Shown: positions 1-27,987, counted from the first letter of the whole stretch. The stretch: 63,651 nt of DNA, filler included, from Psammoneis japonica (GCA_008632985.1; 4 parts of 4 records of this genome joined end to end with filler, not necessarily neighbours in it); one strand, 5' to 3'. The notes: a model not told the origin generated them from the letters alone. Numbers and translations: made by a program.

Positions 1-1125
1 GAGGAAACACACGACAACAACGACAATGATGATGACGACAAAGATGGAGATCACACCCCTGACAAAGACGGAGATGGCTCACCCCCTCAAGATGAAGAAC
101 AAAATCATTCAGATGAGGGGGGAGAGGGGGGCAACAGCCAGCCACCAGATGACAAAGTGACTTCTGACAGAGATGGAATGGCAGAGGAGAACGACCAGCA
201 ACAGGGGGGGCAAGGAAATGACAAAGCAGATGAAGAGGAACCGTCCGCTGCAAACCCTGAGCAACAGGTGGAAGAGGACAACCAAAACATGGATGTGGCT
301 TGGCAGAGTGATGCAGATTCGAATGATGAGCCCCTTCCAAGCGGGAGTGACAGCGACAGCAGTTGCTCCCTCCTGAATCAAAGCCAGCAAGTGACGGGCT
401 CCAGTCCCAGGTGGGACTTTTTGTGACATTTGCCGCGCAGAATTCTGCGCGCAAGCTCTGCAGTTTGCACTCTGGTTGATGGATGTGTTTGTCTTTGACA
501 CAAAATGAATGGCTGAGTTTGCAGCACATGTGTCTCTCTTCGCACTTGAAGTTTTGGACAACACGCCTGCCCCACGCCATTCTCAAGACACTCGAGAATG
601 GCGCAGAAGAAAAAAATGTCAAAAGTTGCTGAGTGGATTGCCTGCTGTTTGCACTGTGAAATGATGCGATTCAAAAAACTGTCGATGTCACAGTTCAGCA
701 GCACGAGGTCCCACCTTGACCCTGGAATGCATCAAGTGCCGCGTTCCGCTGCAAGGAAAAAATGGTGGAGAATGGATGTTGTCTCCTCATCCTCTGAATC
801 ATCCTCTGAATCGGAGATTGGCGCATCAGATGATGACGACCCTTCAAGTGCTGTGGCTGCTGCCAAAGTTTCAGCCAAGATGAAAACCCTGTCAAAAGTG
901 TCTGAACCACAAAACCAGAATGTGAGGAAAAGAGTTGTTCAAGCAACTCCGGATCGTGAGACAAAAATGGATGCAAGGAAACGCAGGGCGGTGGCGCAGG
1001 CCAAAAAGGTGGAAAAAAAGGAACAGGCAAGGAGGAAGAGAATTGAGGCAGACAAGAAAAGGGGGGGAAGGCGGCGGCAAGAGCAAAGGCAATGGAGGCG
1101 GCAAGAAAGGAAAAGGAAAAAATGA
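1..1125 (+). pseudogene. Acidic/charged low-complexity coding-like region split by a MITE, function unknown
   Basis: D/E/Q-rich frame (...SCSLLNQSQQV) before 393 resumes as QVPRSAARKK...SSSSESSSE after 733 across an AAGT duplication; no recognisable domain. Confidence 0.3.
393..733 (+). mobile_element. MITE family A copy 1 (~25-bp imperfect TIRs, 4-bp TSD)
   Basis: Left end GACGGGCTCCAGTCCCAGGTGGGAC, right end GTCCCACCTTGACCCTGGAATGCATC; AAGT at 389-392 and 734-737; homologous to 31859-32247 and 40999-41324. Confidence 0.85.
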
Positions 1126-3521
1126 AGAACGCCAGCAAGCCAAAGAAGGACATGCCGCCGACAGGAAGAGTGAGGGCAGAACAACCCCCACCCATCCCAA
1201 CGAATTTGGCAAAGAAAAAAAGACGTGCAACTGGCAGCGGAACAAAAAACAACAAAAATGAAGTTCAGGCAGTTGGGCACATGCATCGACAACAAAAATG
1301 TGTACGGGGAGCATCGCAGTCTCAAAAATGGCTGCATTGCTGTGAATCCCACAACACTCATTGTCCACTTTTTGTTTTCAGGTTTGTGGCAATTTTGGCA
1401 TTCAGCCACTTGTTTTGGGTGTTGCTTTCAGTCACGCTGCCAGTCACAACATGTGAAAATGATGCTTGACTGATTCGATGTGTGCAACGACATGTCCTGA
1501 GTTCGACTGTGGATGAGAAACAGATGCGGTTGCGCGCCCATTTGGCATGGTCTGTCCATTGACAGGAGCAAAATTGCATCGATCGCTTTGGCAAATGCAT
1601 GTCCTGAGGTCGACTGTGGGTGAGAAACAGATGTGGGTGCGCATCCATTTGGCATGGTCTGTCCTTCAACCGTGGCCACTTGGCATCGATCAGGTGGGGT
1701 CTGTCATTCAACCNGTGCCACCTCATGGCCCAAACCCAAACCCTCCCATCCCAAATGCACCACATGCAATTTTTTGTTTTGCTCCCTTGGCCATTTTGCA
1801 CCTTTGAGATTTTGTGCCCTCAGCCATGTTGCGCAATTCTTGACTTTGTGCCCTTGACCTTTTTGTGCCCTTGGCTGTTTTGTGCCCTTTCCTTTTTTTG
1901 TGCCCTTGAGCATTTTTCCCCATCTCGTGGTTTTGTGCCCTTGGCCATTTTGCGCCCTTTGTGACTTTGTGCCCTTGGCCATTTTGTGCCTTTTTTGGTT
2001 TTGGGCCCTCAGCCGCATTTGGTGCCCCTCATGATTTTGTGCCTTCAGCAATTTTTGGCATTGTGGTTTTGTGCCCTTTCCCACCTTGGGCCCTTTCTGA
2101 TTTTTTGCCCTTGGCAGCTTTGCATCAAGTGCCGCGTTCCGCTGCAAGGAAAAAATGGTGGAGAATGGATGTTGTCTCCTCATCCTCTGAATCATCCTCT
2201 GAGTCGGAGATTGGCGCATCAGATGATGACGACCCTTCAAGTGCTGTGGCTGCTGCCAAAGTTTCAGCCAAGATGAAAACCCTGTCAAAAGTGTCTGAAC
2301 CACAAAACCAGAATGTGAGGAAAAGAGTTGTTCAAGCAACTCCGGATCGTGAGACAAAAATGGATGCAAGGAAACGCAGGGCGGTGGCGCAGGCCGAAAA
2401 GGTGGAAAAAAAGGAACAGGCAAGGAGGAAGAGAATTGAGGCAGACAAGAAAAGGGGGGGAAGGCGGCGGCAAGAGCAAAGGCAATGGAGGCGGCAAGAA
2501 AGGAAAAGGAAAAAATGAAGAACGCCAGCAAGCCAAAGAAGGACATGCCACCGACAGGAAGAGTGAGGGCAGAACAACCCCCACCCATCCCAACGAATTT
2601 GGCAAAGAAAAAAAGACGTGCAACTGCAGCGGAACAAAAAACAACAAAAATGAAGTTCAGGCAGTTGGGCACATGCATCGACAACAAAAATGTGTGCGGG
2701 GAGCATCGCAGTCTCAAAATGGCTGCATTGCTGTGAATCCCACAACACTCATTGTCCACTTTTTGTTTTCAGGTTTGTGGCAATTTTGGCATTCAGCCAC
2801 TTGTTTTGGGTGTTGCTTTCAGTCACGCTGCCAGTCACAACATGTGAAAATGATGCTTGACTGATTCGATGTGTGCAACGACATGTCCTGAGTTCGACTG
2901 TGGATGAGAAACAGATGCGGTTGCGCGCCCATTTGGCATGGTCTGTCCATTGACAGGAGCAAAATTGCATCGATCGCTTTGGCAAATGCACGTCCTGAGG
3001 TCGACTGTGGGTGAGAAACAGATGTGGGTGCGCATCCATTTGGCATGGTCTGTCCTTCAACCGTGGCCACTTGGCATCGATCAGGTGGGGTCTGTCATTC
3101 AACCGGAAGCGTTTCGTGCCACCTCATGGCCCAAACCCAAACCCTCCCATCCCAAATGCACCACATGCAATTTTTTGTTTTGCTCCCTTGGCCATTTTGC
3201 ACCTTTGAGATTTTGTGCCCTCAGCCATGTTGCGCAATTCTTGACTTTGTGCCCTTGACCTTTTTGTGCCCTTGGCTGTTTTGTGCCCTTTCCTTTTTTT
3301 GTGCCCTTGAGCATTTTTCCCCATCTCGTGGTTTTGTGCCCTTGGCCATTTTGCGCCCTTTGTGACTTTGTGCCCTTGGCCATTTTGTGCCTTTTTTGGT
3401 TTTGGGCCCTCAGCCGCATTTGGTGCCCCTCATGATTTTGTGCCTTCAGCAATTTTTGGCATTGTGGTTTTGTGCCCTTTCCCACCTTGGGCCCTTTCTG
3501 ATTTTTTGCCCTTGGCAGCTT
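729..3521. repeat. Near-identical ~1.4-kb tandem duplication (729-2121 / 2122-3521)
   Basis: GCATCAAGTGCCGCGTTCC... restarts at ~2122; only a few SNPs and indels; single N at 1714. Confidence 0.9.
1775..2121. repeat. Degenerate TTTTGTGCCCTT-core minisatellite, copy 1
   Basis: GTGCCC/GCGCCC cores preceded by T-runs recur roughly every 20 bp. Confidence 0.8.
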
Positions 3522-3657
3522 TGTGCCCTCAGCCGCCATTTTGCACCCTCAGTCATTTTGTGACCTCAGCAATTTCATGCCCCTGCCTGGTTTGTGCTCT
3601 TTGTGATTTGGCGCCCTCAACAGACATTTTTTGTCCTTTTTGATTTTGTGCCCTTGC
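3176..3657. repeat. Degenerate TTTTGTGCCCTT-core minisatellite, copy 2
   Basis: Same array, ends at the Copia LTR edge; collinear with 13932-14398. Confidence 0.8.
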
Positions 3658-3884
3658 TGAAGACACGACAAAGCAGCTTGTGTTACAAAGAGCAAGAGCT
3701 CAAGGTTGCATCAGAGCAGCAGAAGTCATTGTCAAAGTTCTCTGTGGAGAAATTATGATTGCAAAACTGACGAGAGGTCTCAACGACCGAATTTGTGAGA
3801 AGAGAAGAGATTTGAATCTTGGTGACGCAAGCGACACACAGAAATGTCCGAAATGACGTTGACAGAATGACTTTGACATTTTGA
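3658..3884 (-). repeat. Putative 3' LTR of the Copia element
   Basis: Follows the polypurine tract and ends ...GTCTTCA on the minus strand at the minisatellite border; no second copy in the window to confirm. Confidence 0.5.
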
Positions 3885-4464
3885 CTCTCCCTCTCAAATG
3901 CAGAGCTGCCAGCCAGCCAGACTCTTCTGACCGGATTCAAATGGAGCTTGGGCTGACCCCTTTGCAAGCTGATCTGCAAGCTGAGAGTCAATTCCTGCAG
4001 GCTCAATGATGATCTCGAGTGCTTCAACTTTAGTGCGGAACCAATGACAGGGAGCGCCAATGTGTTTGGCACAAGGAGACATCTTCGCCATTTTCGCAAA
4101 CTTGAGACACACTTGGTTGTCCTTGCAGATGATGGAGGAAGGAATCGCGCCGTCTTTTCACATCAGAAAAGGCTTTGGATTTGGCAGCAGTGGGAGCAGA
4201 AGCATTCTTGCGCCCGAGTGCGTGACACTGAATTTCTTTCAAAATTTCTCGGATCGGAATCAGGTCGCGCATGCCAGCCGACAGTGCCAGACATTCTGCC
4301 TCCACAGCAGAGAGGGCAATCTGCATCTGCAGCTTGGAGACCCACAGAACAGGACAGTCGCAATGCAAAATGACACATCCTGTACGAGACTTGACACTCA
4401 CAGGGTCTTGGGAGTTTTCATGACCGCAGAGTCCAGCAAAATTGGCATCCACAAAACAATCAAC

Positions 4465-7400
4465 TCATTTGTTGTCGCTGGGGCGTGGATGGAGGCCCTT
4501 GTCCTTGGCACCTTGAAGATGACGAAGAATGCGCTTCACTGCAATGGCATGAGAGTGTTCAGGAGCACAGGAGAAGCGAGCGGCTTGATGGGTGGTGCGC
4601 GTGATGTCGGGACGGGAGTTTGCCGACAAGTGCACGAGCATCCCGACAACAGATCGGCAATCCCATGGTTTGGCAAAATCGGCTCCCTCTGAATCAGCAT
4701 GGCACGGAGAAGCAGTGCAAGGCATGGGAGAAGGACGACAATCTTCCATGCCAGCAGCTTTGAGGACCTTGTCGGTCAGACCTGGTTGAGTCAGTGGGAA
4801 CTCCTTGGGTCCGGTCTTGCGAATCTTGACACCTGGGAAGTTGCCAACTTCTCCTTCATTACGAAGCTCGAAAATGTGACGTTGTTCTTCCTTTTGAATT
4901 CCTGGAGCGGCAATCTCGCATTCCAGAAGGTCTCTGTCAGCACCAGCGAGGATGGCATCGTCGACGTGTGCGGCACAAATCATGCCATCCTTGAAGAACA
5001 GACATGGATCTGCAGCTGACTGAATCCACCCTCGTTCAAGTGATCCTTCGCGGAGCTTTTCGTGGAAGCATTTCGGGGCTTGTTTCAACCCATGGAGCGT
5101 CTTGAGCAGCTTGAGAACCATGTTCGCACCTGAAGAGTGACCAAAGCACTTGGGAGGTTCGACACAAACGTCTTCAGCAATGTCAGCTTGTGCAAACGCA
5201 TTTGTGCAGTCAACTTGACGAGCTTTCCACCCTTCTTGCAATGCAGCACTCAACAGCAAACGAGCAGTCGACCACTGGACCACTGGAGCGCAAGTCTCGA
5301 AGTGGTTGACTCCCTCTTGCTGCAAATCGCCACGACAACAAAATCGAGCCTTGAATTTCAGCGGAGCACCGTCGGGCAAGCGTTTCAACTTAAATGCCCA
5401 TGTTGATTTCAACACATTCATGGATGAATCGCGCTTGACAAATTTCCAAGTTTTACGATGAACAAGCGCGGCCACTTCGGTCTTCATGGCCTCGACACAT
5501 TGCTCGGCGAATTCGCCCGTGAGAGCTTCTCGCATGTTCGGCGCATCGTCATTCTTCTTGGCCTTTGTAGCGCAGACACGAGGGTCTTGAATGTCCAATT
5601 GTCCACTGTCACAGCAGGTCTGGATCTGAGCAAGACAGGTGAGCTGGGAATGGTGTCCTCCAGCATCCAATGGCTCGACTGAGGCCAAACAGACTTCGTT
5701 GGCAAAACGAGTTTTAGCTTGCTTGCCTTTGTTTGATCTTTGTGAGTGACGCACATTCTGCTCAGTCGTGGATGGGACTGGAACATCAGGAGCCGGGACT
5801 GGGATGTCCGATGACTCCGGGCCAGATTGAGGTGGCGGACGTACGAGAGGCGGTGCATGACCAACTTCAGAATCGCTCGTTGATGGATTGGGGTTTTGTG
5901 GTGGCTGCGATGGCGGTTCCTGTGGTGGCGCCAATGGCAAGTCGTCTGTGTTTGATGGTGTGGACACATCAGGACGTGCAGATGGTGGCGGTTCGATGAC
6001 TGGAGCGACAGGCTTCGAAGACTTTGTAGCAGCAGGCTGTTGTTGACGTGCATTCCTGACAAGATGCTCGCGTTCTTCATGTCGCCATTTCTGCTCGAGT
6101 TCTGCAGGAGCAAGCCAATCGTCTTGGAGGAACAATTGTTTGTTGCTTGAATCCAGTGGCATCTGGATGACACTCTCCAAACAGAGCTCTTCCCAGTGAT
6201 CAGGTGGCTCGCTCTCCCTCTCAATTGATGCGACCGTGGCAAAGAGATCGTCGAATGCCACATGATGCTGAGGAGCAATGGACCCGGCACTCAAGTTCAG
6301 GACCAGTGGAACCTCGCCAGCGTGAACCAAGCTGAGGCCGAGAAAAACACCACGCCGTGATCGTGGTTGCCAACGCGGCAATTTCTGTCCTTGCTGCAAC
6401 TTGGGATCCAAGACGTAGACAGGACACCCCCAAGCATGTAAATTGAGCAAACAGTGGCGTGGGATGGTGGATCCGGTGAAAATGTCGGCAGGACAAAGTC
6501 CATTTGATCCCGGAGTGTTGTTGTAAATGTGGGCGGCACAGTTGACCGCCATGGGCCACAAGGAGCTGTCAATGCCACCACGCCAATGGATGGACACGTG
6601 GAGGATCATGGCTTGCGCCACATTGGACACAGAACGAATGGACCGCTCCGCAACGCCATTCTGGTGATGGGCATTTGTTCCACAATGGTGGATGCGTTGC
6701 TGAGATTTGCGGACATGGGCAACAAACTTGTTGGCCTTGAAAGCACCATTGTCGGCAAGGTGCTCCTGCACGATGATGCCGTGACCCAGAGCCATCTGCT
6801 CACAACCTTGTTTTGCCCGCATCGTCTCAACTGCAGAGAAACCAACTTGATGCTCAACGTGTGTGAACCCAGAGGCATGATCGACGAAAATGCAGCCGCC
6901 AACACACTGCTGGGAGGGGGGTTTGCCACAGGAATCACAGGTGCAACCCTCAGCGAGGATGGCATCGTCGACGTGTGCGGCACAAATCATGCCATCCTTG
7001 AAGAACAGACATGGATCTGCAGCTGACTGAATCCACCCTCGTTCAAGTGATCCTTCGCGGAGCTTTTCGTGGAAGCATTTCGGGGCTTGTTTCAACCCAT
7101 GGAGCGTCTTGAGCAGCTTGAGAACCATGTTCGCACCTGAAGAGTGACCAAAGCACTTGGGAGGTTCGACACAAACGTCTTCAGCAATGTCAGCTTGTGC
7201 AAACGCATTTGTGCAGTCAACTTGACGAGCTTTCCACCCTTCTTGCAATGCAGCACTCAACAGCAAACGAGCAGTCGACCACTGGACCACTGGAGCGCAA
7301 GTCTCGAAGTGGTTGACTCCCTCTTGCTGCAAATCGCCACGACAACAAAATCGAGCCTTGAATTTCAGCGGAGCACCGTCGGGCAAGCGTTTCAACTTAA

Positions 7401-9640
7401 ATGCCCATGTTGATTTCAACACATTCATGGATGAATCGCGCTTGACAAATTTCCAAGTTTTACGATGAACAAGCGCGGCCACTTCGGTCTTCATGGCCTC
7501 GACACATTGCTCGGCGAATTCGCCCGTGAGAGCTTCTCGCATGTTTGGCGCATCGTCATTCTTCTTGGCCTTTGTAGCGCAGACACGAGGGTCTTGAATG
7601 TCCAATTGTCCACTGTCACAGCAGGTCTGGATCTGAGCAAGACAGGTGAGCTGGGAATGGTGTCCTCCAGCATCCAATGGCTCGACTGAGGCCAAACAGA
7701 CTTCGTTGGCAAAACGAGTTTTAGCTTGCTTGCCTTTGTTTGATCTTTGTGAGTGACGCACATTCTGCTCAGTCGTGGATGGGACTGGAACATCAGGAGC
7801 CGGGACTGGGATGTCCGATGACTCCGGGCCAGATTGAGGTGGCGGACGTACGAGAGGCGGTGCATGACCAACTTCAGAATCGCTCGTTGATGGATTGGGG
7901 TTTTGTGGTGGCTGCGATGGCGGTTCCTGTGGTGGCGCCAATGGCAAGTCGTCTGTGTTTGATGGTGTGGACACATCAGGACGTGCAGATGGTGGCGGTT
8001 CGATGACTGGAGCGACAGGCTTCGAAGACTTTGTAGCAGCAGGCTGTTGTTGACGTGCATTCCTGACAAGATGCTCGCGTTCTTCATGTCGCCATTTCTG
8101 CTCGAGTTCTGCAGGAGCAAGCCAATCGTCTTGGAGGAACAATTGTTTGTTGCTTGAATCCAGTGGCATCTGGATGACACTCTCCAAACAGAGCTCTTCC
8201 CAGTGATCAGGTGGCTCGCTCTCCCTCTCAATTGATGCGACCGTGGCAAAGAGATCGTCGAATGCCACATGATGCTGAGGAGCAATGGACCCGGCACTCA
8301 AGTTCAGGACCAGTGGAACCTCGCCAGCGTGAACCAAGCTGAGGCCGAGAAAAACACCACGCCGTGATCGTGGTTGCCAACGCGGCAATTTCTGTCCTTG
8401 CTGCAACTTGGGATCCAAGACGTAGACAGGACACCCCCAAGCATGTAAATTGAGCAAACAGTGGCGTGGGATGGTGGATCCGGTGAAAATGTCGGCAGGA
8501 CAAAGTCCATTTGATCCCGGAGTGTTGTTGTAAATGTGGGCGGCACAGTTGACCGCCATGGGCCACAAGGAGCTGTCAATGCCACCACGCCAATGGATGG
8601 ACACGTGGAGGATCATGGCTTGCGCCACATTGGACACAGAACGAATGGACCGCTCCGCAACGCCATTCTGGTGATGGGCATTTGTTCCACAATGGTGGAT
8701 GCGTTGCTGAGATTTGCGGACATGGGCAACAAACTTGTTGGCCTTGAAAGCACCATTGTCGGCAAGGTGCTCCTGCACGATGATGCCGTGACCCAGAGCC
8801 ATCTGCTCACAACCTTGTTTTGCCCGCATCGTCTCAACTGCAGAGAAACCAACTTGATGCTCAACGTGTGTGAACCCAGAGGCATGATCGACGAAAATGC
8901 AGCCGCCAACACACTGCTGGGAGGGGGGTTTGCCACAGGAATCACAGGTGCGACCCTTCAGATGCGACTCGAAGTGATCAATGCTCATGGACTGACCTGG
9001 ATGGAGATGACCAGCCTTGAGTGCACCATCGCGTTCGGGGACAGCAGGACGGCGGTGAGCCTTGGCATGCTCGCAGGCATCACATTTGGGGATGTCACAC
9101 TTGGAAGCAGACGCGAACTTGAGAGCGGTGAAAGGAGGCCGGCGGAGAAGAGCTTGGATGCGTGGAAAATTGAGATGCCCAAACCGAGCATGTGTGTCCA
9201 CGAGCAGCTTCTGCCCAGAGGACAGATTTAGATTGTCAGGGTCAGCAATGGTGCTCAAATTGACCTGAGGAGCAAACACAGTGCCGCGAGACGTGTGACC
9301 AACCGGCAAGTTTGAGCGCTCATCGTGTGGAACTTGGATCTCGGGTGTGCCGTAAAAACAAATCTTGAAGATCTCACTGTCACCCCAAAAATGGCCTCGA
9401 ACACCTGCAGGATGAAAGAGACGTTGAGGGGACAGAAGGTGCACCTTGGAACGAGGGACATGACAGCAGCAAGTCTGGACATTGACGTTGCTGCCGTCGG
9501 CAGCCTGGAAGCACCAAGAGACAGTGCCAACGCCCTCAGCGGGAAGGCCGCCAGCCATCCCACCAAGCTTGAGAGGCTCAGACAGCAATTCAATCTCGCC
9601 ATCAAAGTCCTCCTCATCCGGAGAGATGGTGAGAAAGCAC
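4465..9640 (-). pseudogene. Copia pol (integrase-RT) with in-frame 2007-bp internal duplication and mutated catalytic motifs
   Basis: ORF 4465..9858; IN-RT block occurs twice; I count only 6 Tyr in 1797 aa; HVDD instead of YVDD. Confidence 0.85.
4944..8957. repeat. Tandem 2007-bp duplication (4944-6950 / 6951-8957)
   Basis: CAGCGAGGATGGCATCGTCG restarts at 6951; ORF track repeats with a 2007 offset (5137/7144, 5484/7491). Confidence 0.95.
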
Positions 9641-12610
9641 CAGTGTTGAAGACGACCTCCAGTGACAACTGCCCGATGGACATGAGAATGGCAGGGTCCC
9701 CAGCCAGGCGAGACAGTTGGGTGGCTCCAGTGAGAGCCTGAACAGCAGCTGCGGCAGGTTGTCCAATAGAAGCAGGGGACGCACCAGCAGCTTGAGCAGC
9801 CAGTGCTGCGACAGAAGGTTGGAACTCGGTGCAGTCGACCACATGGTGGGCTCGACACAACTCGGAGATCCCAAAGATGTCAGGACTGGAGAAGCCAGAC
9901 TCGCGAAAGGCAGCAGCATCAAAGAAGGACTCTTGAAAGACAGGTGGGTCCTCACAGGCATCAAAGCAGCAATCGAGCTCACAGGCCTTGATCAACTCGT
10001 GAAGCTTGAAAGGCAAGGTCGTCATGTCATGCGTTGCTCCCTCTGGCACCAAGACCTCACGCTGGAACTGCTTGATCTTCAGATGATGATGCTGCAGCAG
10101 GGTGCCAGGGGTCAAGACGACATGTTCGTCAAGAGCTTGAACAACCTCGTGGGTCTGAGAGCAGAGACGCTGCAAGGGAATGCCAGGATGGGGTGGGGCG
10201 CAGCCGAGACAGACGGAGAGCCAAAGCGCAATCGCACAGGAGATCACGCCCCAATGACGCAGATGACTGAAAAGAGCAGGCTTGCGCTTGAGACGGCGAT
10301 GGCGACACGAGGGCGGCGGCGGATCACCACCAGCACCCACCAGCCGTGGGATGCCTTCCCAAAGAAGAGCAGAGAACCAAAAGACTGGGATCTTGAGGAG
10401 GGGCCAGAGCCAGCAAGAAGTGGGCTGAGGTTCCACGTCAAGGACATTCGGAGCAGGCTCAGAGATCGCATCGTAGAACTCGTCATCAAGTGCAGGAGAC
10501 TCAACAGGAGGCGGTGGATCATCCAAGATGGAAGGCTCCGGTGGGGACATCGAAGCAGGAAAGAGGATGACCGAATCATCCCAATCCAAATTGTCGCAAG
10601 CATCACAGCAATTGCTGAAATCGTCAGCATCTTCTGGGCCAACCGTCTCAACCAAAATTGCACGCTGCTCCCTCTCAGCGGCAGGACTGGGAAGGACGGA
10701 GACTCGTGTGACGGGAGCAGTGTTGCCGGATGCATCCTTGACAGGACAGCAACAGAACCCGGTCCAGACTGGTTCCTCCTCTGAAACGGGGGGAGCATCA
10801 TCGTCGGACGACGGATCGGGCTTGGTGGACGTAGGATCGGCGGTGGTCTGAGCGGGTGGCCCAGCCGGCACGCCGGAATCGGGATCGGCCACGGAAGCAA
10901 GGTTGGCATCCGGCTGTTCCTTCTTGGGTGGCTTGTTGGTGTGGGCGGCATCCTTGTGACCAGCATGGAGGCCCTTGATGCCAGTGTGGCGGCACGTGCA
11001 CTTGGTGCAAAAGTGAGCAGTCGACCCACACTTGTTGACGACTGGCTGGTTGAGATCAGCCGGACGAGTGCAGCGATGGGGCTTGTTTGCCAACAGCTCC
11101 TTGAACTTTGCTTGTTTGGCCACAGGTGCATTCGCTGGAGCAACAGTGCTGGGAGGAGACGTGGAAGGAGGGGGGTGGAGCACCTGCTGGCGGTTGACCC
11201 TTGCGTTGTTGGCGGGCAAGCTTCTTCAGGCGCTGACGTTCCTCATGCTTGGGACACTTTTTGTCATTGGCCCAGGTGGTCTGGAGCACCACAAGCGTTG
11301 CAAGCTCCCTTGCGCTTGGTGTGGTTGCCCTGAGGGAGTTTGGCAGAGAGACCTGGCCAGCCCTTGTCGGCAACGAAGTTACGATGCCTCGTTTGAAGGA
11401 AGGTGATGTGCGCAGTCGGACCAAGAGTTCCGCAGTCCTTGTCCTTGGCAAGTGGCGCTGGGTCCGTCAAACGATGCTTGCGTTCCATGGCCGTCACCTT
11501 GTCCAACTGGGTGAAGATTGCTTGATTGAATGCTTTGCCAGAGGTCTTGGAGCACTTCCGAAGGAGATCGGACCCGAGAGAGATGGGGAGCGCGCGTCCT
11601 GTTTGCAGGATCTTGGTGAGGCGGAGAGCTTCGGTGGCAAACTCGGTGACATCCTCGCCAGCACAGGAGTCAAGCATCAAAGCCTTGAAGTCTTCAGCAG
11701 CTTGAGCGACATCATGCATGGCGGAGGCATTGCAAGTCTCGAGAGCCATCACAAAAATGATTTGCCCAGGGTGGCATCGGAAGAGGTTGCGATGACCGAA
11801 TTGAGTTTCAATCTTCTCACAGAATTGGTGAGTGACACGAGACTCGACGACAAGACGTGAAAGCTTGACATCATCGTGCTCATGTTTGTCGTGTGCCGAA
11901 TCGTCTGTCGCCTTGTTGGCGTGTTCGTCATGCTCCGCAATGAACCTCGTCGACGGCGAAGCTGTGGAGGTGAGTGAAGAGGTCAACGACCTTCTTGTCC
12001 AACTTCGTGATGAAAAAATTTTCCAATCCATGCTCATTCACTGACGTGCAGACTGCTTGAACGAAGTGTTCCTTGTTGAGCTCATTCGTCTTGCCGTTGG
12101 GAATCTCTGGGTTCCCGTCAAACTTGACGATGTCGGTTCCATCTCAGGCGTCTCGGAGATTGCGCTCTGTGTGAGGAAGAATCTTCTTGTCCCGAGACTG
12201 GTTGGCAGAGCGACAGGTGCGCTTGAGCTTGAGATGGCACTCATCATTCAGCGGTGATCCACCCATGTGGCGACCATGTTCCGGATGGATTCCGCCACAG
12301 ATCGGAGGTGGACGAGGTTGCTGAACATTGGAACGCAACGACTGTTGGTTGGAGCGTGACTGTTGAGCAGCAGCACCGGCAGACTGGTTCTGTTGAGCGG
12401 CGGCACCAGTGGACTGATTCTGTTGAGCGGCAGGACCAGTGGACTGGTTTTGTTGTGCCGTGGGAGGCGGCGGAGGCTGACCAGCAGGAGTCTTGGGCGG
12501 AGGAGGATTGTTCGTCATGGCAGAGACAACTTTTTGTGCAGCTGCAGCACCAAATGCACGCAGTCAACTCAACAACGGATCAATGGAACGAACTTTGAGT
12601 TGCAGAGCTT

Positions 12611-13560
12611 TTGGCAGACCAGCGCATCATGGTGACTCCAAAGGCAAAGATTGCTTCTTTTGGCTGTGGGGGCAGTTTGCAACCTGGGAACATGTGGCTT
12701 GTTTGCACGAAAGTGCGCGAGATGCCTGGAGCACTTCACGGCAGGGAACTCCAAGAACGGAGGTGCGGGAGGGAGTGCACCCAGGAAACACAAGAGGGAG
12801 GATTTTTGCAGGAAGATTGTGGCAGAGCGTGACAGGAAAGTGGAGGAGGGGGGCAGTGGGTTGGGGGATGAGGAAAGCCACGTGGTGGGTTGCGCTGAGA
12901 CACATGAGCTGGAGCCAAAACCTGTTTGGCGGACAATGTGTGAAAAGCGGCAGTCACGCCAGTTGCAAATGACGTTGCAGACACAGTCCAAATTGAGCGA
13001 CTGCACCCCACGGCGCCAGCTGGAGAGCAGCTGGGGAAGGGCACAACACAAGCGGCACCTTGGGAAACCAGTCAACCGATCTGTTGTCAGCCAGTTGTTG
13101 AATGTGTTTGAGTGGGTCCGCCGGAGTTTTTGGCCCGTTCGCTTTCTACGTGGCCTGGAACAACCCAAATCTGTGTGGGTTCAGTGTGCTTTGCCCTGCA
13201 GAGCAGTTTTTGGGAGTGTTCTCTGGCTCGTGGCTCAAAATGACACGCAAAATGGAGCGAACAATGGCGTTTTGCCAAGTTGAAAAATGCGGTCATCTCT
13301 GAGGTCGGAACCTGGATGCTCTCAATGGAGCTCGGCACTGTCACGTCATCTTCTGCGAGACAAGCTCGAGAACATCCAGGCTCACATGGGCAGATCATGG
13401 CGAAAATTCTTGCTGAAGGTTTGCACTGACAACGTCGCTTCTGTTGCATCGCAGCCGACCTCATGCGCTGCCATTCGTGCTGTGTGTTTTGTTGAGGCTT
13501 CACATGTTTGCAGCCGTTCAATTTGCGCGCATTTTCTCTTTCTACGTTGCTCTTTTTGTT
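12611..13560. repeat. Unclassified dispersed repeat family B copy 1
   Basis: Homologous to 14465-15310 and 15570-16095 (AAAGTGCGCGAGATG...CAACCGATCTGTTGTCAG). Confidence 0.8.
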
Positions 13561-13716
13561 TGCCCTGCGGGGCAATTTTTTTGGAGTGTTTTCTGGCTCT
13601 GCGGCTTGAAACAACATGCAAAACAGCACGGACAGCGGCGTTTCGCCAAATTGAAAAATGCGGTCGTCTCTGAGATCGGAGTCTGGACACTCTCAACGGA
13701 GTTTGGTGCATCACAT

Positions 13717-13812
13717 CATTTTCGCATTTTCGCATTTTCGCATTTTTGCATTTTCGCATTTTCGCATTTTCGCATTTTCGCACTTTCGCATTTTCGCATT
13801 TTCGCATTTTCG
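13717..13812. repeat. 8-bp tandem repeat (CGCATTTT)n, about 12 units
   Basis: Directly visible. Confidence 0.95.
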
Positions 13813-13931
13813 CTGTCTTCAAATCAAGAACAATCTCGCCACATGTTGCAGGGGGGCACTGAAGGGACACAGCCCACTGGCAGGGCGCTGATCAAACAAG
13901 ATTTGCGGCGCAAGTGTTTGGCGCTGGGGGG

Positions 13932-14398
13932 CACCTTTGAGGCTTTGTGCCCTCAGCCATGTTGCGCAATTCTTGACTTTGTGCCCTTGACCTTTTTGTG
14001 CCCTTGGCTGTTTTGCGCCCTTTCCTTTTTTTGTGCCCTTGAGCACTTTGCCCCATCTCATGGTTTTGTGCCCTTGGCCATTTTGCGCCCTTTGTGACTT
14101 TGTGCCCTTGGCCACTTTGTGCCTTTTTTGGCTTCAGGCCCTCAGCCGCATTTGGTGCCCCTCCTGATTTTGTGCCTTCAGCAATTTTTGGCGATTGTGG
14201 TTTTGTGCCCTTTGCCACCTTGGGCCCTTTCTGATTTTTTGCCCTTGGCAGCTTTGTGCCCTCAGCCACCATTTTGCGCCCTCAGCCATTTTGTGACCTC
14301 AGCAACTTTGTGCCCCTGCCTGGTTTGTGCTCTTTGTGATTTGGCGCCCTCAACAGACATTTTTTGTCCTTTTTGATTTTGTGCCCTTGGCCATTTTG
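13932..14398. repeat. TTTTGTGCCCTT-core minisatellite, copy 3
   Basis: Collinear with ~3200-3657. Confidence 0.85.
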
Positions 14399-14464
14399 CT
14401 GGTCATGACAGAGCTGCAGAACAACAAGAACCTGCCCGATGAAGAGCGCGGGGCAAAGGAGAGA

Positions 14465-15310
14465 AAGTGCGCGAGATGCCTGGAGCACTTCATGGCAGGG
14501 AACTCCAAGAACGGAGATGCGGAAGGGAGCGCACCCAGGAAATGCAAGAGGGAGGATTTTTGCAGGAAAACTGTGGCAGAGTGTGACAGGAAAGCGGGGG
14601 AGGGGGGCAGTGGGTTGGGGGATGAGGAAAGCCACGTGGGGGGGTGGACCCAGACACATGAGCTGGAGCCAACACCTGTTTGGCAGAGAATGTGTGAAAA
14701 GTGGCAGTCACGTTTGTTGCAAATGACGTTGCAGGCACAATCCAAATTGAGCGACTGCACTCCACGGTGCCAGCCGGAGAGCGGCCGGGGAAGGGCACAA
14801 CACAAGTGGCGCTTTGGGAAGCCAGTCAACCGATCTGTTGTCAGTCAGTTGTCGAATGTGTTTGAGTGGGCGCGCCGGAGTTTTTGGCCCGCTTGCTTTC
14901 TACGTGGCCTGGTGCAACCCAAATCTGTGTGGGTTCAGCACGCTTTGCCCTGCAGAACAGTTTTTGGGAGTGTTCTCTGGCTCGCGGCTCAAAATGACAC
15001 GCAAAACGGCGTGGACAATGGCGTTTTGCCAAGTTGAAAAATGCGATTGTCTCTGAGGTCGGAACCTGGATGCTCTCAACAGAGTTTGGTTCGTTGTTTC
15101 ATCTTGTGCGAGATGAGCTCGAGAGCGCCCAGGCTCACATGGGCAGATTGTGGCAAAAATTCTTGCTGAAGGTTCGCATTGACAATGTCGCTTCTGTTGC
15201 TTCACGACCAGCTTCATTCGCTGCCATTCGTGCTGTGTGTTTTGTCGAGGCTTCGCGTGTTTGCAGCCATTCAATTTGCGCGCAATTTCTCTTTCTGTGC
15301 TGTTCTTTTG
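14465..15310. repeat. Repeat family B copy 2
   Basis: Aligns by eye with ~12710-13560, mostly transition differences. Confidence 0.8.
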
Positions 15311-15569
15311 TTCTGTGGGGTCTCTGTTGTCATGAGGCACCCCAGAGACACTTTTTCTTGTCTAGAATGTCATCTCTAAAGTGCGGTGGCCACGGCAATT
15401 CAGCGACGAAGCCAAGTCACAGACACAGCATCAGGAAGAGTTCAAGACAAACACGGCAACTTGGAGCCATGACGTCTTGAGCTGGGTGAGCTCTCAAGAG
15501 CTCAGACACATCATCGCACAGTTTTGACAACATTTCTCCCCCACTGTCCATGGCGATGCTGAGTTTGAT

Positions 15570-16095
15570 TTGGCAGACCAGCGCATCATGGTGACTCCAA
15601 AGGCAAAGATTGCTTCTTTTGGCTGTGGGGCAGTTTGCAACCTGGGAACATGTGGCTTGTTTGCACAAAAGTGCGCGAGATGTCTGGAGCACTTCACGGC
15701 AGGGAACTCCAAGAACAGAGGTGCGGGAGGGAGTGCACCCAGGAAACACAAGAGGGAGGATTTTTGCAAGAAGATTGTGGCAGAGCGTGACAGGAAAGTG
15801 GAGGAGGGGGGCAATGGCTTGGGGGATGAGGAAAGCCACGTGGCGGGTTGTGCTGAGACACATGAGCTGGGGCCAAAACCTGTTTGGCGGACAACGTGTG
15901 AAAAGCGGCAGCCACGTTTGTTGCAAATGACGTTGCAGACACAATCTAAATTGAGCGACTGCATTCCACGGCGCCAGCTGGAGAGCAGCTGGGGAAGGGC
16001 ACAACACAAGCGGCGCTTTGGGAAACCAGTCAACCGATCTGTTGTCAGTCAGTTGTCGAATGTGTTTGAGTGGGTCCGCCGGAGTTTTTGGCCCG
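15570..16095. repeat. Repeat family B copy 3 (truncated)
   Basis: TTGGCAGACCAGCGCATCATGGTGACTCC start shared with 12611. Confidence 0.8.
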
Positions 16096-17003
16096 CTCAC
16101 TTTCCACCTTGGTTTGGTTTTGCCCTTTTGGGGATTCCCCAAAATGGCAAAGGCAAGGGGGAATTGTCTTGCCCTTTTGGGGAATTCCTGTGAAATGAGG
16201 GCAATTTGGCAGGAAGGAACGACCAAAAGGGCTCAGGGGAGGGGAACAAAAAACGAATGGAGTGCGGTGATGTGCGGCAATTGTGGGCAGGCGGGTGTGC
16301 TTTCATCCTCGTGGCGACTGGCGCACGGAAAAAACGATGCACGACCATGACGGGTGCATCGACAAATCGGCACAAAGCGCCCCCTTGTGGCAGAGCAAGG
16401 GAAGAATGAACTTCGCCATTAAATCACACATGTTGACACTGCTCACATGTGGCTCTGTTTTTGCCTTGGCCTTTGCTCTGGAGCCGTTGTGGTTTGCATT
16501 TGTGACCACGCGACACAAGAAGGAAAAAATGATGCACTGCATTCTGTGCATGAGACAGGTCAAAGGGAAGAACGAACATTGTCGATCAACCCGCCACATT
16601 TTCGCTGACCTTGTGAGGCTCTGCTCTTGCCTCAGCCTTTGCTCCAGATGCCTCATGGTTTGCATTTGTGGCTGCACGACAACGGAGTGATTCCAAACGA
16701 TCCGCTTCATTCTGCACGTGAGATGTGTCAGTTGAAACAAAAACCATGACCATTCAATCCGCCGCATTTTTGTCAGCCATGTGCAGCTCCACTTTTGCCT
16801 TGAACTTTGCCACAAATGCCGCATGGCTCACATTTGTGACTGCAGGAAAGAAAAATGAGTGCAACGATCAGCGCACTGGTTTTCTGCTCAACATCATCTG
16901 CCACACTTCTGCTCATTTTTGTTTTACACTGTCGATCGCAATCTCGCTCACTGGATTGGCTGGCGTCATTTTTGTTTGACAAGAGCCGTCGTGGATGGGG
17001 CGC

Positions 17004-17103
17004 NNNNNNNNNNNNNNNNNNNNNNNNNNNNNNNNNNNNNNNNNNNNTTAATTAATTAANNNNNNNNNNNNNNNNNNNNNNNNNNNNNNNNNNNNNNNNN
17101 NNN
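17004..17103. other. Artificial contig spacer
   Basis: N44-TTAATTAATTAA-N44; stops in all six frames. Confidence 0.98.
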
Positions 17104-19250
17104 TGCACAGAATATGTGCAACGGACGTACCTTTCATAAATACTTGGCGGGAAGTCATTACACCCTAATTAACTTATCGATTTGCAAATTCGGGTGTGGA
17201 GGTTATCTCCGTTGTGACTTTTGCTGGATACAGTGACATTGCAGGTGCTGTGGGGTTGCTCAGCACAGTTTGGCAGTTAGCACTCAGTCCTCTGCAACAA
17301 CAACACTGGGGACATGCTCACACAGACCCCGTGGACACCTTTTTTTTGTGATGTGGCAAGACGAGGACCGATTCACTGTCAGTCTCCACACACTGCTGGT
17401 GGAGAGGCACTGCACCAGCGGGTGAGAAAAAAACTCAAATCTGGTTTTTCAAGTGCTGCAGCAGCGCTTTTGCCCAGCAACACTGGCACAGGCTGACCCA
17501 CACATCTGGTGCACCCTGCTGGGGGTGCAGCAGAAGTGCACATGATTGGTCACTTGGTGTGCCATTTTACAGTGGCGCACACTGGAGGCAACTGGCTGAG
17601 GCAAAAAATTGCACAGAAAAGAAATTGTTGCTTTCTTTTGGAGAGAGTGCAGAGCACCCAAACTGCCACAGCAAAGAACAGTTGTGTTGAGAAGAGGACA
17701 CAAAGCCAGTGCAAGCTGTGAAAAAAATGCCTTGCATCTAAAAGTGAGTGTCTTGTCTTCAAAACAAAGACTGGCTGGGTTTCACATTTGCACGTGCCGG
17801 AACAAAAATGAGCCATTTGCCACTCAGAGGCAGGCCAGCAGGGAGAAGATGGGGTGTTCAAGACTTGCAGGTGTGAAGCAGGGAGCCTTGATGACACAAT
17901 GAGAAGGACATTGGAGAAAAGAACATCATTCTCATGTGGGGTTGACGCCGAGTCTTGTGTGGAAATGCCGATCCATGCAGCAAATGGACGGCCCCATCAA
18001 GTGATGCCAATGGTTTGTCCAAACAAACACTTGCAAGCACTGCAGCAGGGGCAGAACTTTCACCACATGAGGGGAGGGGCTTGAGCAGTCGGCAGGAGAA
18101 AAAAAATCATTGTGGGCTGCATCTCACCATGTCATGATTCCTGCCCAAAGTGCGAGCTCTCAAGAAATGAAGTGAGATGCCGTCACACTGCCTGACGGTT
18201 GCAGGTGAGCCTCTTTATAATCTCACTTGCTCAGTGGGCACTTTAATCTCTTGTTCATTGAATCACCTGGCACATCGCCCATGTGGACATGTCACCACAC
18301 ACGACATGGGCTGATGGGTTGTGTGGATGGAAGATGATGGCATCAAAGATGTTGTGATCATCAGTGGGCATTTCTGAAGCATGCAGAAGTTGTGCTGAGA
18401 TCCTGTGCAGAAAATTCACCGAATCTTGCCGAATCTGCAAAAAAAAAGCTGAGTGAGACAACAAACATGATGCGAGCCATGAGGTGTCTGTGCCAATCAT
18501 TTTCCACTGAAAATTGTCATGCATCATGCTCAAACAAAGGTGTGCCAATGACACAAGTAGCCAAAAGGGTGTTGGGGGACCCCCAGCAAAACACCATCTG
18601 AAAGAGGGGCAACATCAGTGCAAAAGCACGTGCAGAAACACACGCACCACGGGCTGCCAGTGGGTGGCTGCTGACATCGGGAAGTCTGCACCAGCAGGTG
18701 ACTCCAGGGGCAGCACAGCAGCCAGGAGGTCTGCTTTTCTCTCCATTGGGGCCCTCTCTAGGAAACTGACAGAGCAGCAGAGATCACAGCTGGCCCAATC
18801 ACCAAATGGGAGACATTCACTGGGTCATCACATGGATTCAGACGGAATCTTGGTTTTCACTTCACAGCTGACTCTGCGCACCTTAACTCACAATGGGACA
18901 TGGCTCGTCCAAAATATGCTATCGCTCATTCAGAACAATTATACAAATTGTGGGACGACTCCTCATGTCATTGTCATTCCGCTGATACGGTCCGTCGTTC
19001 CGATGCGCTGCTGTCCGCCCGACCTGACCTTCTCAGGTAGTCCGCCGCCCTAATTTTTCGGAAGACTGATGCGACATTGTAATTGTGAGCGGCTGAGACT
19101 CAGACCACAGACTAGGGGAACCGAACAAAAGCCACCTATAAAGGAGGAGAAAATGAAACTTTTCATGAAAAATGATATCAGAAAATGGGAAGACTTATCG
19201 GTCTATGGTAAGCATTCTTTGTGTATGTTAGCGTCCATCTAGTTTACTTC

Positions 19251-20084
19251 CTAGTGTCCAGTCCACAGTTTTCCGGCTTCCGTTTCTCCCGACTTGAGCT
19301 TCTTCCATGCCTCGTGGGTTTCCTCGATTACCTTTTTGGCCTCGGCGGCGTCAAGGAACTTCTCGTCGAATCCGAAGCCATTGAGCGGTTTGTCATCGGG
19401 CGTCTTGTACCAGCGGAACCATTCACGGATTCCAGCCAAGACAGACTCAGGGACATCATCAATGTCATTGTACTCCTCTGCCAAAGGGTCGTCCTTAGAG
19501 ATAGCAACAACCTTCCAGTCCAATTCTCCGTCATCAATCATTGCCAAGACGCCAAGAGGCTTAACTTCAGTGACTGAGCCCATGTCAAGCGTCTTGCTTC
19601 CAATCTCCACAACATCGATCGGATCATCGTCGCCAAATACTTTGAGTTCTGGGTGTTCCTCATTAGGATCCTCCCAGGTCTGTGGCAAGCAGCCATAGTT
19701 CCAGAAAATTGGTCCGTGATAGTCACGGAGATTGCCTTTCTTAATATCCTGAGCGATCGGGTTGCTTTCCTCCTTCGTGGCAACTTCCATCTTTGCTTTG
19801 CTCATTTTAGGAATTTCTACAACCATATTGAACGAATCGCCACTTCCCTTGAGAGGGATGTCATGCCAGGGCGAAATTGGGCCCTTTTCTCCCTTGAAGT
19901 TCAGGCGAAAGGATTCTGTAGCAACCTCACCGCTGACCTCGGTTTGTACCGAAAAGAGAGCTGCAGCAGCAAACGTCCTCTGTTGAGCCCTGTAAACAGC
20001 AGGCGTCACACTGCGAGAGATCAAGCCCGACGCAGACGATGCGCTCAGAGCAAGAAACGAGAAAGCACCTGGAGCGAACTTCAT
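19251..20084 (-). CDS. PPA: Soluble inorganic pyrophosphatase (family I), probably plastid-targeted
   Basis: SPWHDIPL, VVEIPK, WNYGCLPQTWEDP, GDDDPIDVVEIG, DDGELDWKV, WFRWYK motifs; signal-peptide-like MKFAPGAFSFLALSASSASG start at 20084. Confidence 0.93.
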   Translation of the reverse strand: MKFAPGAFSFLALSASSASGLISRSVTPAVYRAQQRTFAAAALFSVQTEVSGEVATESFRLNFKGEKGPISPWHDIPLKGSGDSFNMVVEIPKMSKAKMEVATKEESNPIAQDIKKGNLRDYHGPIFWNYGCLPQTWEDPNEEHPELKVFGDDDPIDVVEIGSKTLDMGSVTEVKPLGVLAMIDDGELDWKVVAISKDDPLAEEYNDIDDVPESVLAGIREWFRWYKTPDDKPLNGFGFDEKFLDAAEAKKVIEETHEAWKKLKSGETEAGKLWTGH

Positions 20085-20317
20085 GGTCAATCGAATGTTG
20101 TCACGAGCAGATGTGTGACGAGTGACGATTTGAAAAAATGGCGGGTGATGCCGCGGCCACACGAGTTTCTGCGTAGAAAGAGTACTGAGTTCTACATCCA
20201 CTACTGCTCCATCCGTCCATCAACGTAAAACACGTCACAACATCATGTTGCGGTTGACGCACGTACGCGCGCCGGAAGGATGATCGATCGCGAACATCGG
20301 CCAGACGAGATGTGGGG

Positions 20318-20325
20318 TGACGTCA
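20318..20325. promoter_or_regulatory. TGACGTCA (bZIP/CRE-type palindrome) in a divergent promoter
   Basis: Exact motif between the head-to-head PPase and DUF1995-like genes; function is inferred only. Confidence 0.3.
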
Positions 20326-20497
20326 TCGGCGGGACAACGCATCACAAGTAGTTTGCTCGTCAGCGCGGGCACAGGCAACATGCAACATGAAAACAGGACC
20401 AATGTGAGCAACAAGCAACTACTGTACGACGAAAGCGTTCCTGTTCTGTCTCGTCATTATTTTGGTACCTCTTGCCATTCAATACATCTAATTGAGA

Positions 20498-21608
20498 ATG
20501 ACGCCGCGACAACTTTTTCTTTTGTTTGCGGCATTCAGATGCGCTTTGTCTTTTTCCACGCTCTCACCTTCAGCGCCCAGAAGTATCAGCAGCAGCCGCG
20601 TGAAGAAGAATGAGCTCGTCATGAATTCTCAACAAAAAAGTTCACCCGAAACAGCTGAAGTTGACAAAACTGAGTCCCTTTTGATTCCTCTTTCGTTTGA
20701 TGAAATGATAAGAGAGGCAGCAAGTGCCATGGAAGATGCTTACGAGGCTGGAGTAACCCGTCAAATTGTTCGTGTTCTCTTACCGAGAGACCCCGACAAT
20801 GGTCAACTTGGACGCTTCTTTGAAAGCGATGTGGAAATCGATACGCGGCAACTTGTTTTGGCCCCGCCTGATGAGACGTGGCAGGGTGGCATCATGCAGC
20901 TCTATAGGGCCGCCGCGCCAACGGGCCAAGAGCTTCTCAGGTGAGCTTGAATTTTCTGTCTTTGCGTCTTCGACTGAGTGTTTGTACCTAAACCTCATAT
21001 CATTTTTCTCTACGCATCATTCATCGTTGCACAGAAAATACTCGAAAGATCTTGGTGGCCTGCCTCCTCGAATGGTCGAAGACCGTTCTGTGGATGAATC
21101 AGGTGTCGACGGGGTTGGGCTGTGGATGACCCAGAATGCCTCGCCCGCAGATGATGTTAGCTGCTTTGTTCAACCAACGCAGGAAACTGTTGACGCCATT
21201 GAGAGCATTTCAAATTCAGCTGGAAAGAGACTAGTCATGATGCTTAATCCACAGTGGCGTATCATTGATGACGCCTTGGACTCGGCATCGCGAGAAGATA
21301 GTCCGTTTGGAAAGTTCGCATCGTTCCTCGGCGGGAAAGGGAATTCTCTCAAACGACTTGATGACATGGGGTTTGCCAGTGTGTACACTCTGGAAGGTTA
21401 TGTGTGTAAGGGAGGCAATATAAGGCTTGTCAAGAGATTCGACTCTGATTGGGTTGTGTTTGCGGAAAATGACGCACAAACCGACTATGTGCGTCTGGGG
21501 AGCTCAAAGTCTCGTCCGATGTACCAAGATGTTGACAAAATGATGGACGAAAAGGGCATCAGTCTCAAGTACGCTCGCGATATTGGCCTTGCTCCGAAGT
21601 TGGAATAA
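20498..21608 (+). CDS. DUF1995-like plastid protein; exons 20498-20940 and 21035-21608
   Basis: Signal peptide with ALS-F motif; GT..AG intron restores the frame (R-KYSKDL); DETWQGGIMQLYR, DESGVDG and LNPQW motifs. Confidence 0.75.
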
Positions 21609-21873
21609 GCACCGACTTCACTTTCTGGATAGTATTGAAACAATTACATAGACAAGACGGTTTTTGAATTTGTGTGCTCTATTTTATACATGCGATCTGA
21701 ATAACTGCGGCGAAAACACATCCTTGTTCAAGGAACGCCAGACTTAGACAGGGAAAAGTTAGCCACGACTTTGCCCCTGGTACAAACGTTGGTGATGGAA
21801 AAACATAGAAGGCTCCCAACGTCCAGTAGCTGTACGATAGATTGAAACAGACATCATATCTATCGATACACAA

Positions 21874-27817: not shown

Positions 27818-27987
27818 GTACACACTTTTGTAGATAATGTCGGCTCCAATCATTAGAAAGCTTTGATCAAATTGTGGTTGCTGAGTTACATTAAAGTTAG
27901 CTTTGTACATCGAGTGAAATCAGGCTCACTTTCCCACAGCGTGCTTATTGCAAACGCAACAGTTTACGTGAGTCCGAAGTCAAGATT

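Follow-up and report, generated by a model that had tools for sequence, protein, structure and literature searches.

Near-complete loss of TpA from Copia and other repeat DNA of a diatom, probably through hypermutation to TpG and CpA that spares neighbouring host genes

A hypermutation confined to the TpA dinucleotide has been described in the chlorarachniophyte Bigelowiella natans. According to the preprint (Mettrop et al., bioRxiv 10.64898/2026.01.13.699255), 230 of 231 mutations that mutation-accumulation lines gained in two integrated viral regions were A>G or T>C, all of them at TpA. Only some of the lines acquired them, at a rate about 1000-fold above background. Reverse transcriptase (RT) and DDE domains were over-represented among the TpA-poor genes of B. 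natans, and the agent proposed by the authors is an adenine deaminase of ADAT2-like type (bioRxiv 10.64898/2026.01.13.699255). Diatoms and stramenopiles are not mentioned in the accessible text. Here, we report the same signature in a 63,651-base stretch of diatom DNA made of four contigs (the window, always meaning this full length), which carries a dead Copia retrotransposon and other repeats that have lost most of their TpA. A first-pass annotation of this DNA had pointed to a systematic replacement of Tyr by Cys or His in the polymerase (pol) frame of the Copia element. Our analysis places this replacement within a broader pattern, which we attribute, as the probable explanation, to TpA-to-TpG/CpA hypermutation acting at the DNA level on diatom transposon and repeat DNA while sparing neighbouring host genes. 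The signature is known so far only from the B. natans preprint; the window extends it to another lineage, only distantly related to B. natans, in which retrotransposons are hit and the outcome is nearly saturated. A full-text search of openly accessible literature returned nothing on TpA loss in diatom transposons.

As far as the accessible part of the preprint goes, the two cases are alike in that only TpA is affected, the products are TpG and CpA, DNA of foreign derivation is hit and the adjoining host DNA is normal. In both, loss of TpA goes with gain of CpA and TpG, and RT is enriched in the low-TpA genes of B. natans. They differ in their hosts, a diatom (stramenopile) here and a chlorarachniophyte (rhizarian) there, and in their targets, which are Copia and other repeats here and giant virus and virophage DNA there. 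The depletion also runs far deeper here, with an observed-to-expected ratio (o/e) of 0.04 over 17 kb against a Rho of 0.45 reported for the viral region. Finally, the process is read from its end state in the window, whereas it was watched in mutation-accumulation lines in B. natans.

Two better-known processes offer further comparisons. Like fungal repeat-induced point mutation (RIP), the pattern described here consists of dinucleotide-specific transitions that riddle repeats and transposons, leave adjoining genes alone and skew dinucleotide frequencies. Its direction is opposite: RIP converts CpA/TpG to TpA, raises TA and makes stop codons, whereas here TpA is converted to CpA/TpG and TAA and TAG vanish. 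RIP itself was considered and ruled out by a TA o/e of 0.04 together with TG and CA values of 1.47-1.54, the reverse of what RIP leaves. The APOBEC3 enzymes resemble the present case in killing retroelements by context-specific, deaminase-style mutation, mainly through missense changes; they differ in converting C to U on minus-strand complementary DNA (cDNA), read as G>A in the sense strand, with a strand asymmetry and TGG>TAG stops of which none was seen here.

The TpA content of the window defines the following blocks, none of which is assigned to a strand:

1-17003, contig A: repeat DNA almost free of TpA, with the Copia element and flanking repeats
17280-18900, contig B: TA-poor block with normal DNA on both sides
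19000-30400, contig B: host-gene block of normal composition
30600-33808, right end of contig B: TA-poor repeat block, TA o/e 0.16
33909-50294, contig C: TA-poor, strongly CpG-poor repeats and a second Copia of another family
50395-63651, contig D: TA-poor repeat DNA including leucine-rich repeat (LRR)-type frames

Contig A contains 38 TA, where about 936 are expected from composition and 545 from the host-gene baseline, and its o/e values are 0.04 for TA, 1.47 for TG, 1.54 for CA and 0.67 for CG. TA o/e is 0.20 at 17104-18999, 0.16 at 30401-33808, 0.19 in contig C and 0.10 in contig D; in the host-gene block (19000-30400) it is 0.57, with a CG o/e of 0.98. The limits of the affected DNA are sharp within 200 bp. 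At the contig B edges near 17.3 and 18.9 kb, counts in 200-bp bins pass from 11 TA to 0-3 and then to 8-12, so that 17304-18903 holds 8 TA for about 96 expected; a further edge lies at about 30.2-30.6 kb. Both products occur in near-equal numbers in contig A (TG 1682, CA 1499). To balance losses against gains, we summed lost TA and CG and compared them with gained TG+CA in five blocks, using the host-gene block as baseline. The two sides agree within about a quarter (862 vs 800, 119 vs 133, 137 vs 173, 982 vs 1145, and 786 vs 890), and in contig A the 862 divide into 507 TA and 355 CG, the CG loss thus making up less than half. CpG depletion varies among the TA-poor blocks (o/e 0.07-0.8; 0.39 in contig C), and its depth is uncoupled from that of TA: counts per kb are 0-1 for TA with 28-34 for CG at 1-3 kb, and 7-9 for TA with 3-4 for CG at 42-44 kb.

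The loss takes no account of coding. Within pol, TA survives in 6 TAN and 5 NTA codons and at 11 cross-codon T|A places, where 101 cross-codon ones are expected, and non-coding DNA is equally depleted across the 17 kb of contig A. TAA and TAG together fall to 2.6 per kb in contig A, compared with 32.8 per kb in the host block (both strands counted), and TGA is unchanged. With TAA and TAG gone, 23 open frames of at least 100 amino acids occupy 7.5 kb on both strands (e.g. 3000-10500). TGA is practically the sole stop in contig A. The Tyr loss is thus a block-wide loss of TpA in coding and non-coding repeats on all four contigs, and the first-pass view of it as a property of pol alone does not hold.

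The Copia element of contig A, in which the loss was first noticed, has the following parts:

4468-9858, minus strand: Copia pol open frame of 1797 codons, with protease/pre-integrase, integrase and RT, ending at the TGA at 4465-4467
4944-6953 and 6951-8961, minus strand: two copies of a 2007-bp tandem duplication, in frame, 99.85% identical
4957-4968 and, in the second copy, 6964-6975, minus strand: HVDD (CAC GTC GAC GAT) replacing the RT active-site YVDD; column 663, Tyr in 86% of relatives
4465-4467, minus strand: in-frame TGA between RT and RNase H, through which the tblastn alignments of 8 relatives run in one frame
4033-4464, minus strand: RNase H portion of pol, continuing the RT frame; weak RVT_3 match (0.0067)
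3903-4136, minus strand: C-terminal end of pol in a shifted frame, its last 78 codons; the tblastn frames place the frameshift between 4137 and 4161
9258-11225, minus strand: possible gag, a long open frame of 656 codons upstream of pol in another frame
13931-14389, minus strand: upstream direct repeat resembling a long terminal repeat (LTR), 459 bp, A/G-rich, with sub-repeats of about 24 nt
3199-3656, minus strand: downstream LTR-like direct repeat, 95.9% identical to 13931-14389

The pol frame matches RVT_2 (PF07727, 2.2e-59), SH3_retrovirus (2e-13) and gag_pre-integrs (1e-4) in Pfam, and the order is that of Copia, with gag_pre-integrs (residues 223-266) and SH3_retrovirus (469-534) before RVT_2. 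No Pfam rve match was obtained in pol, nor in the normal relatives P0002 and P0003. The element shares its diatom host and an RVT_2-type RT downstream of the integrase with the CoDi Copia elements (Maumus et al. 2009, PMC2806351), and differs in that the window copy is dead. In the searchable text of PMC2806351, the terms dinucleotide, TpA, point mutation, degenerate and tyrosine are absent.

To place the Tyr changes against relatives, we used the non-duplicated integrase-RT unit (4468-6954, minus strand, 829 aa) as a query against 1.84 billion representative sequences. This returned 61,622 matches at E<=0.001, the best full-length ones being about 35-42% identical. Among the 150 best matches, 146 have an ordinary Tyr content (about 2-4%) and 4 are Tyr-poor, so that the same His and Cys residues are not a feature of the relatives. 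The 146 normal relatives were aligned with phmmer, a Tyr column being one with Tyr in at least 60% of them. There are 10 such columns in the integrase-RT unit, 2 in RNase H and none in the N-terminus. In the window, the ten integrase-RT columns read Tyr once, Cys four times (TGT/TGC) and His five times (CAT/CAC), and both RNase H columns are now Cys (TGT). Overall, 11 of the 12 Tyr columns are changed, to 6 Cys (TGY) and 5 His (CAY), with 1 Tyr left. By contrast, 259 of 305 other conserved columns (85%) are kept and 46 changed. Within the integrase-RT unit alone, 9 of 10 Tyr columns and 34 of 216 other conserved columns are changed (Fisher p = 1.3e-6), and four normal relatives put through the same treatment as a control gave Cys or His in only 1 of 40 Tyr cells. 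In the integrase-RT unit, no conserved D, E, H, N, Q or C column has changed, and G is retained in 24 of 26. These data bear out the first-pass claim of a Tyr-to-Cys/His replacement in a well-preserved pol, and the ten motifs quoted for it are all found in the translation of the minus-strand open frame 4465-9858, including LHGLKQAP at 5074-5097 and 7081-7104 (minus strand).

The remaining changes follow the same rule to a large extent. Among the 43 changed columns (of 226 conserved), a single transition can account for 23: in 15 of these the step is TA>TG/CA, in 5 it is CpG-type and in 3 it is another transition. The other 20 comprise 8 transversions and 12 multi-step changes, as expected for relatives that are only about 40% identical. 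The TA-type changes outside Tyr columns include L>P (CCA) at a column with 96% Leu, L>S (TCA) and V>A (GCA), while T>A, K>E and S>G follow a codon ending in T and are TA-type across codons. The proposal that further oddities of the protein obey the TA rule therefore stands, although the Met of ETMRAK, one of the examples given, falls in no column conserved at 50% or more. Since the conserved Tyr codons now read TGY or CAY, and CGY would encode Arg, the ancestral state was TA and not CG, as had been argued.

Damage to this copy is mostly by missense, with in addition one TGA, one frameshift, the internal duplication and the loss of a catalytic residue of RNase H, where the first D of the DAD motif (91% conserved) has become N, a change that is not TA-type. 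The earlier statement that the element was inactivated by missense and not by stops is thus right for the bulk of the damage and has to be amended for the rest. Similarly, the count of 6 Tyr in 1797 codons (with 78 Cys and 91 His) is exact but redundant: because the 2007-bp duplication, which spans the integrase zinc-finger region to just past HVDD, is in frame, the non-redundant pol has 1128 aa and the 6 Tyr represent 4 distinct positions. As assembled, the duplication may be real or may be an assembly artefact, the contigs of the public sequencing run that contains this DNA (run X1) being only about 190 bp long. At the frameshift, five run X1 contigs lack one base at 4155, among the variant places listed. 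The gag assignment of 9258-11225 is weak, because long frames arise by chance in TA-free DNA, and the 656-codon frame has no Pfam match. Clear TG..CA ends, a primer-binding site and a target-site duplication were looked for at the LTR-like repeats, and none was identified in these low-complexity sequences. The outer part of the downstream repeat lies inside another tandem duplication, of 1393 bp (728-2122 = 2121-3523, 98.7% identical), which, as assembled, may likewise be real or artefactual.

Repeat copies provide a view of direction and order. Across 11 pairs of diverged copies, no dinucleotide is conserved less than TA, of which 35% is kept, with CA (21) and TG (13) as partners; CG follows with 55% kept (partners TG 88, CA 64), and the other fourteen dinucleotides are kept at 71-87%. 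In both tandem duplications, the copies agree in every TG/CA choice and in all nine residual TA; eight substitutions in total separate them, of which five are CpG-type (including both of those between the 2007-bp copies), one is TA/TG (1304 vs 2696) and two are others. The TA loss therefore predates the duplications, and CpG decay continued afterwards. No runs or strand-coordinated clusters of one product were seen along the repeat alignments. In the TA that survives, a preceding A is rare: 9% have a 5' A (ATA/TAT) compared with 27% in host DNA, ATAT occurs 2 times versus 32, and TTAA is over-represented 2.8-fold. This exploratory result suggests that the process prefers an A before the T and/or a T after the A.

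In the affected blocks the signature is thus strand-symmetric, independent of codon phase and confined within sharp limits. Equal products, independence of phase and of coding status, and block limits fit a process on double-stranded repeat DNA, and T>C makes up half of the sense-strand changes, which edited sense RNA cannot give; the process therefore acts on DNA. For this reason adenosine-to-inosine hyper-editing of sense RNA, fixed by reverse transcription, was considered and rejected, as 5 of the 11 changed Tyr codons are T>C (CAY). The known RNA editing systems, ADAR hyper-editing in animals and, in the accessible part of the report on filamentous ascomycetes, ADAT2/3 editing of mRNA (PMC11156358), share with our case an A>G change at an A that follows U or T. 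They act on RNA and leave the genome unchanged, whereas here DNA is altered, on both strands equally.

We propose that the hypermutation would act on integrated double-stranded DNA as a genome defence, as demonstrated in B. natans, and that its chemical step may be adenine deamination by an ADAT2/TadA-type enzyme. Such an enzyme would turn A:T into G:C on one or the other strand of the TA palindrome, and in contig A the reaction would have run almost to completion. In tRNA, the natural target of ADAT2/TadA enzymes is A34, which is invariably preceded by U33; a requirement for T ahead of the A would be accounted for in this way. Destruction of TA removes the Tyr codons along with ATA, TTA, CTA and GTA; it also removes the stops TAA and TAG and can never create one, so that elements are killed mainly by missense while their DNA fills with long spurious open frames. 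Ordinary CpG (5-methylcytosine) decay acts independently on the same blocks. Because TA is palindromic, the chemistry, adenine deamination or thymine oxidation, cannot be read from the sequence.

Several points weigh against this proposal. At TG/CA sites, the LTR-like repeats are concordant in 85 cases and discordant in 2. Were they true LTRs, most of the change would have come before insertion of this copy, or the copy would have been mobilised as a dead element, or it would have arisen by segmental duplication. We set aside this concordance as a clock and keep it as a caveat only, the repeats being of low complexity and not proven LTRs. The timing of the change relative to integration is itself inferred from the end state. 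CA/TG double mismatches are the commonest adjacent double difference between repeat copies (62, the next being 7), and had seemed to prove independent mutation of TA in each copy; we downgraded them, since double CpG decay gives the same result and could account for about 9 of 17 in the best pair, as estimated from CG/CG, CG/TG and CG/CA counts. The classifiable elements in TA-poor DNA are all retroelements, LRR-type frames of uncertain status aside. Finally, run X1, the only run with the sequence (together with two runs of the same sample; no RNA run is listed), could be the source sample itself.

In the main rival explanation, editing is coupled to retrotransposition: a deaminase would convert UpA of the genomic RNA, read out as TG, as well as TpA of the single-stranded minus cDNA, read out as CA. 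Every new copy would thus be TA-poor on arrival, and the chromosome itself would never be mutated. The concordant LTR-like repeats speak for it, as do block edges as sharp as those of insertions, Cys/His choices that differ among copies and families, and the fact that every classified element is a Copia. It requires, however, two substrates edited at equal rates to yield the TG:CA symmetry, and the loss of 96% of composition-expected TA in a single passage would be extreme. Unclassified repeats and LRR-type frames are TA-poor too, the LTR-like repeats may not be LTRs, and in B. natans the same signature arises in place in integrated DNA. We regard this alternative as unlikely. A different chemistry with the same targeting, JBP/TET-type oxidation of thymine at TpA to 5-hydroxymethyl- or 5-formyl-uracil, which would mispair with G and yield T>C, would leave an identical sequence, since TpA is self-complementary and T>C on one strand equals A>G on its complement. 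Other protists hydroxylate thymine in TpA-type contexts, which lends this route some plausibility. Our data contain no evidence for such an enzyme or base in diatoms, and the B. natans authors favour an ADAT2-like deaminase, also without proof; we therefore consider thymine modification distinctly improbable.

Two more prosaic readings fare worse. If a modified base at TpA in repeat DNA were misread, with the consensus choosing randomly between TG and CA, the outcome would be symmetric between strands, nearly complete and limited to blocks, and the read platform is not on record. Yet run X1 contains short contigs, 36-62 deep, that show no difference from the window (of 560 variant places between that run and the window, 40 are listed); the same TG/CA choices recur in both copies of each tandem duplication (99.85% and 98.7% identical) and in both LTR-like repeats, unlike random picks; and the pattern is found again in unrelated public assemblies. 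We hold a sequencing or assembly artefact to be very improbable. Nor do we find it credible that no special process operated, CpG decay combining with selection or codon bias against TA. CpG is indeed depleted in the same blocks, and CG/TG and CG/CA are the commonest single differences between copies. The conserved Tyr columns, however, cannot derive from CG, as CGY is Arg; of the 800 additional TG+CA of contig A, CG loss can supply no more than 355; and selection would neither swap catalytic and conserved Tyr for Cys or His nor act alike in all codon phases and in non-coding DNA. Hypermutation of TpA in repeat DNA is accordingly the explanation we retain.

The TA-poor DNA of the other contigs shows that the Copia of contig A is not an isolated case:

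44900-50200, plus strand: second Copia, belonging to a different family and unevenly damaged (45-48 kb: 7-8 TA per kb)
48318-49304, plus strand: RT of the second Copia (RVT_2, 1.5e-21), with YVDD intact and LYGL reading LCGL
52617-54010, plus strand: LRR-type frames (LRR_1, LRR_14, LRR_8), broken by a stop and a frame change

The RT region of the second Copia (48-50 kb) retains 20-21 TA per kb for about 55 expected, and the region of the LRR-type frames has 10-16 per kb for 63-74 expected. The latter may represent a target other than a transposon, or a piece of a gene picked up by a repeat. A Pfam search of 133 further open frames of TA-poor DNA (29 + 104) recovered one second Copia RT and the LRR repeats, plus sub-threshold zf-RVT, Trypan_PARP and Kv2channel matches; no DNA-transposon domain was found among them. 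In contig C, 40001-44000 shows the reverse of contig A, with 3-12 CG per kb for 51-57 expected and only moderate TA loss.

Outside the window, the two strongly Tyr-poor proteins among the 150 best matches, P0065 (1 Tyr in 2061 aa) and P0113 (0.76% Tyr), are public sequences from other Copia families, about 35% identical to pol. Cys or His stands in 9 of 10 Tyr columns of P0065 and in 8 of 9 of P0113. Across the ten columns, P0065 reads CHHFCHCCCC, P0113 reads -CCHHCHCFC and the window reads CHYCCHHCHH. Because these choices differ, they are independent outcomes and not residues inherited from an active lineage. A scan of metagenome contigs with alignment A2 gave 80 related loci, whereas the same scan with a single protein gave 16 pattern matches and no relative. 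In 4 of the 80 loci (L028, L036, L032 and L026), TA o/e is 0.04-0.18 and CG o/e 0.1-0.2, compared with a TA o/e of 0.34-0.91 in the others. L028 and L036 are 96.6% identical, have their TG/CA pattern in common and read CVDD in place of YVDD. When L026 and L032 are set against the less-mutated L041, TA is kept at 24%, with TG/CA as partners, and other non-CG dinucleotides at 46-87%. Locus L002 has an RT that reads CVCCVDD, though its TA o/e of 0.61 is ordinary.

If confirmed genome-wide, these observations, made on 63.7 kb of one genome and a handful of public fragments, would establish TpA-specific hypermutation of mobile DNA in a second, distantly related algal lineage, turning what appeared to be a curiosity of one chlorarachniophyte into a candidate for a widespread eukaryotic genome defence. 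The same confirmation would make diatoms, which are open to genetic manipulation, an organism group in which to look for the enzyme. A bolder and more speculative idea, which we put forward tentatively, is that diatoms and chlorarachniophytes, and perhaps the stramenopile-alveolate-rhizarian (SAR) group more widely, share a mirror image of RIP, in which a DNA adenine deaminase derived from the tRNA enzyme ADAT2/TadA, guided to transposon and viral DNA, would erase TpA to saturation, kill elements by missense, eliminate two of the three stop codons and raise the GC content of repeats. The near-saturated end point seen here, elements devoid of Tyr, TAA and TAG with long false open frames in six frames, matters for gene prediction, where false proteins are called, and for the dating of transposons in such genomes.

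The four contigs are joined by N44-TTAATTAATTAA-N44 spacers (a six-frame stop linker) at 17004-17103, 33809-33908 and 50295-50394, and contigs that are neighbours in the window need not adjoin in the genome. Repeat families are common to all of them, for example 32746-33799 in contig B, which is 88% identical to 44902-45956 in contig C, and the contigs therefore belong to one genome. A lone N stands at 1714. Two genes were named in the host-gene block:

19254-20201, minus strand: inorganic pyrophosphatase
26291-27814, plus strand: mitochondrial ATP synthase alpha

The contig B host genes are intron-free. ATP synthase alpha is 94% identical to the protein of Phaeodactylum tricornutum and 95% to that of Chaetoceros tenuissimus, and identical to neither, which identifies the host as a diatom; its gene has 20 TAY codons. 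Another gene of this block (22646-23647, minus strand) contains a long Pro/Ser/Gly-rich tandem repeat of SNPSGGPSSSPGVG units, and its TA content is normal.

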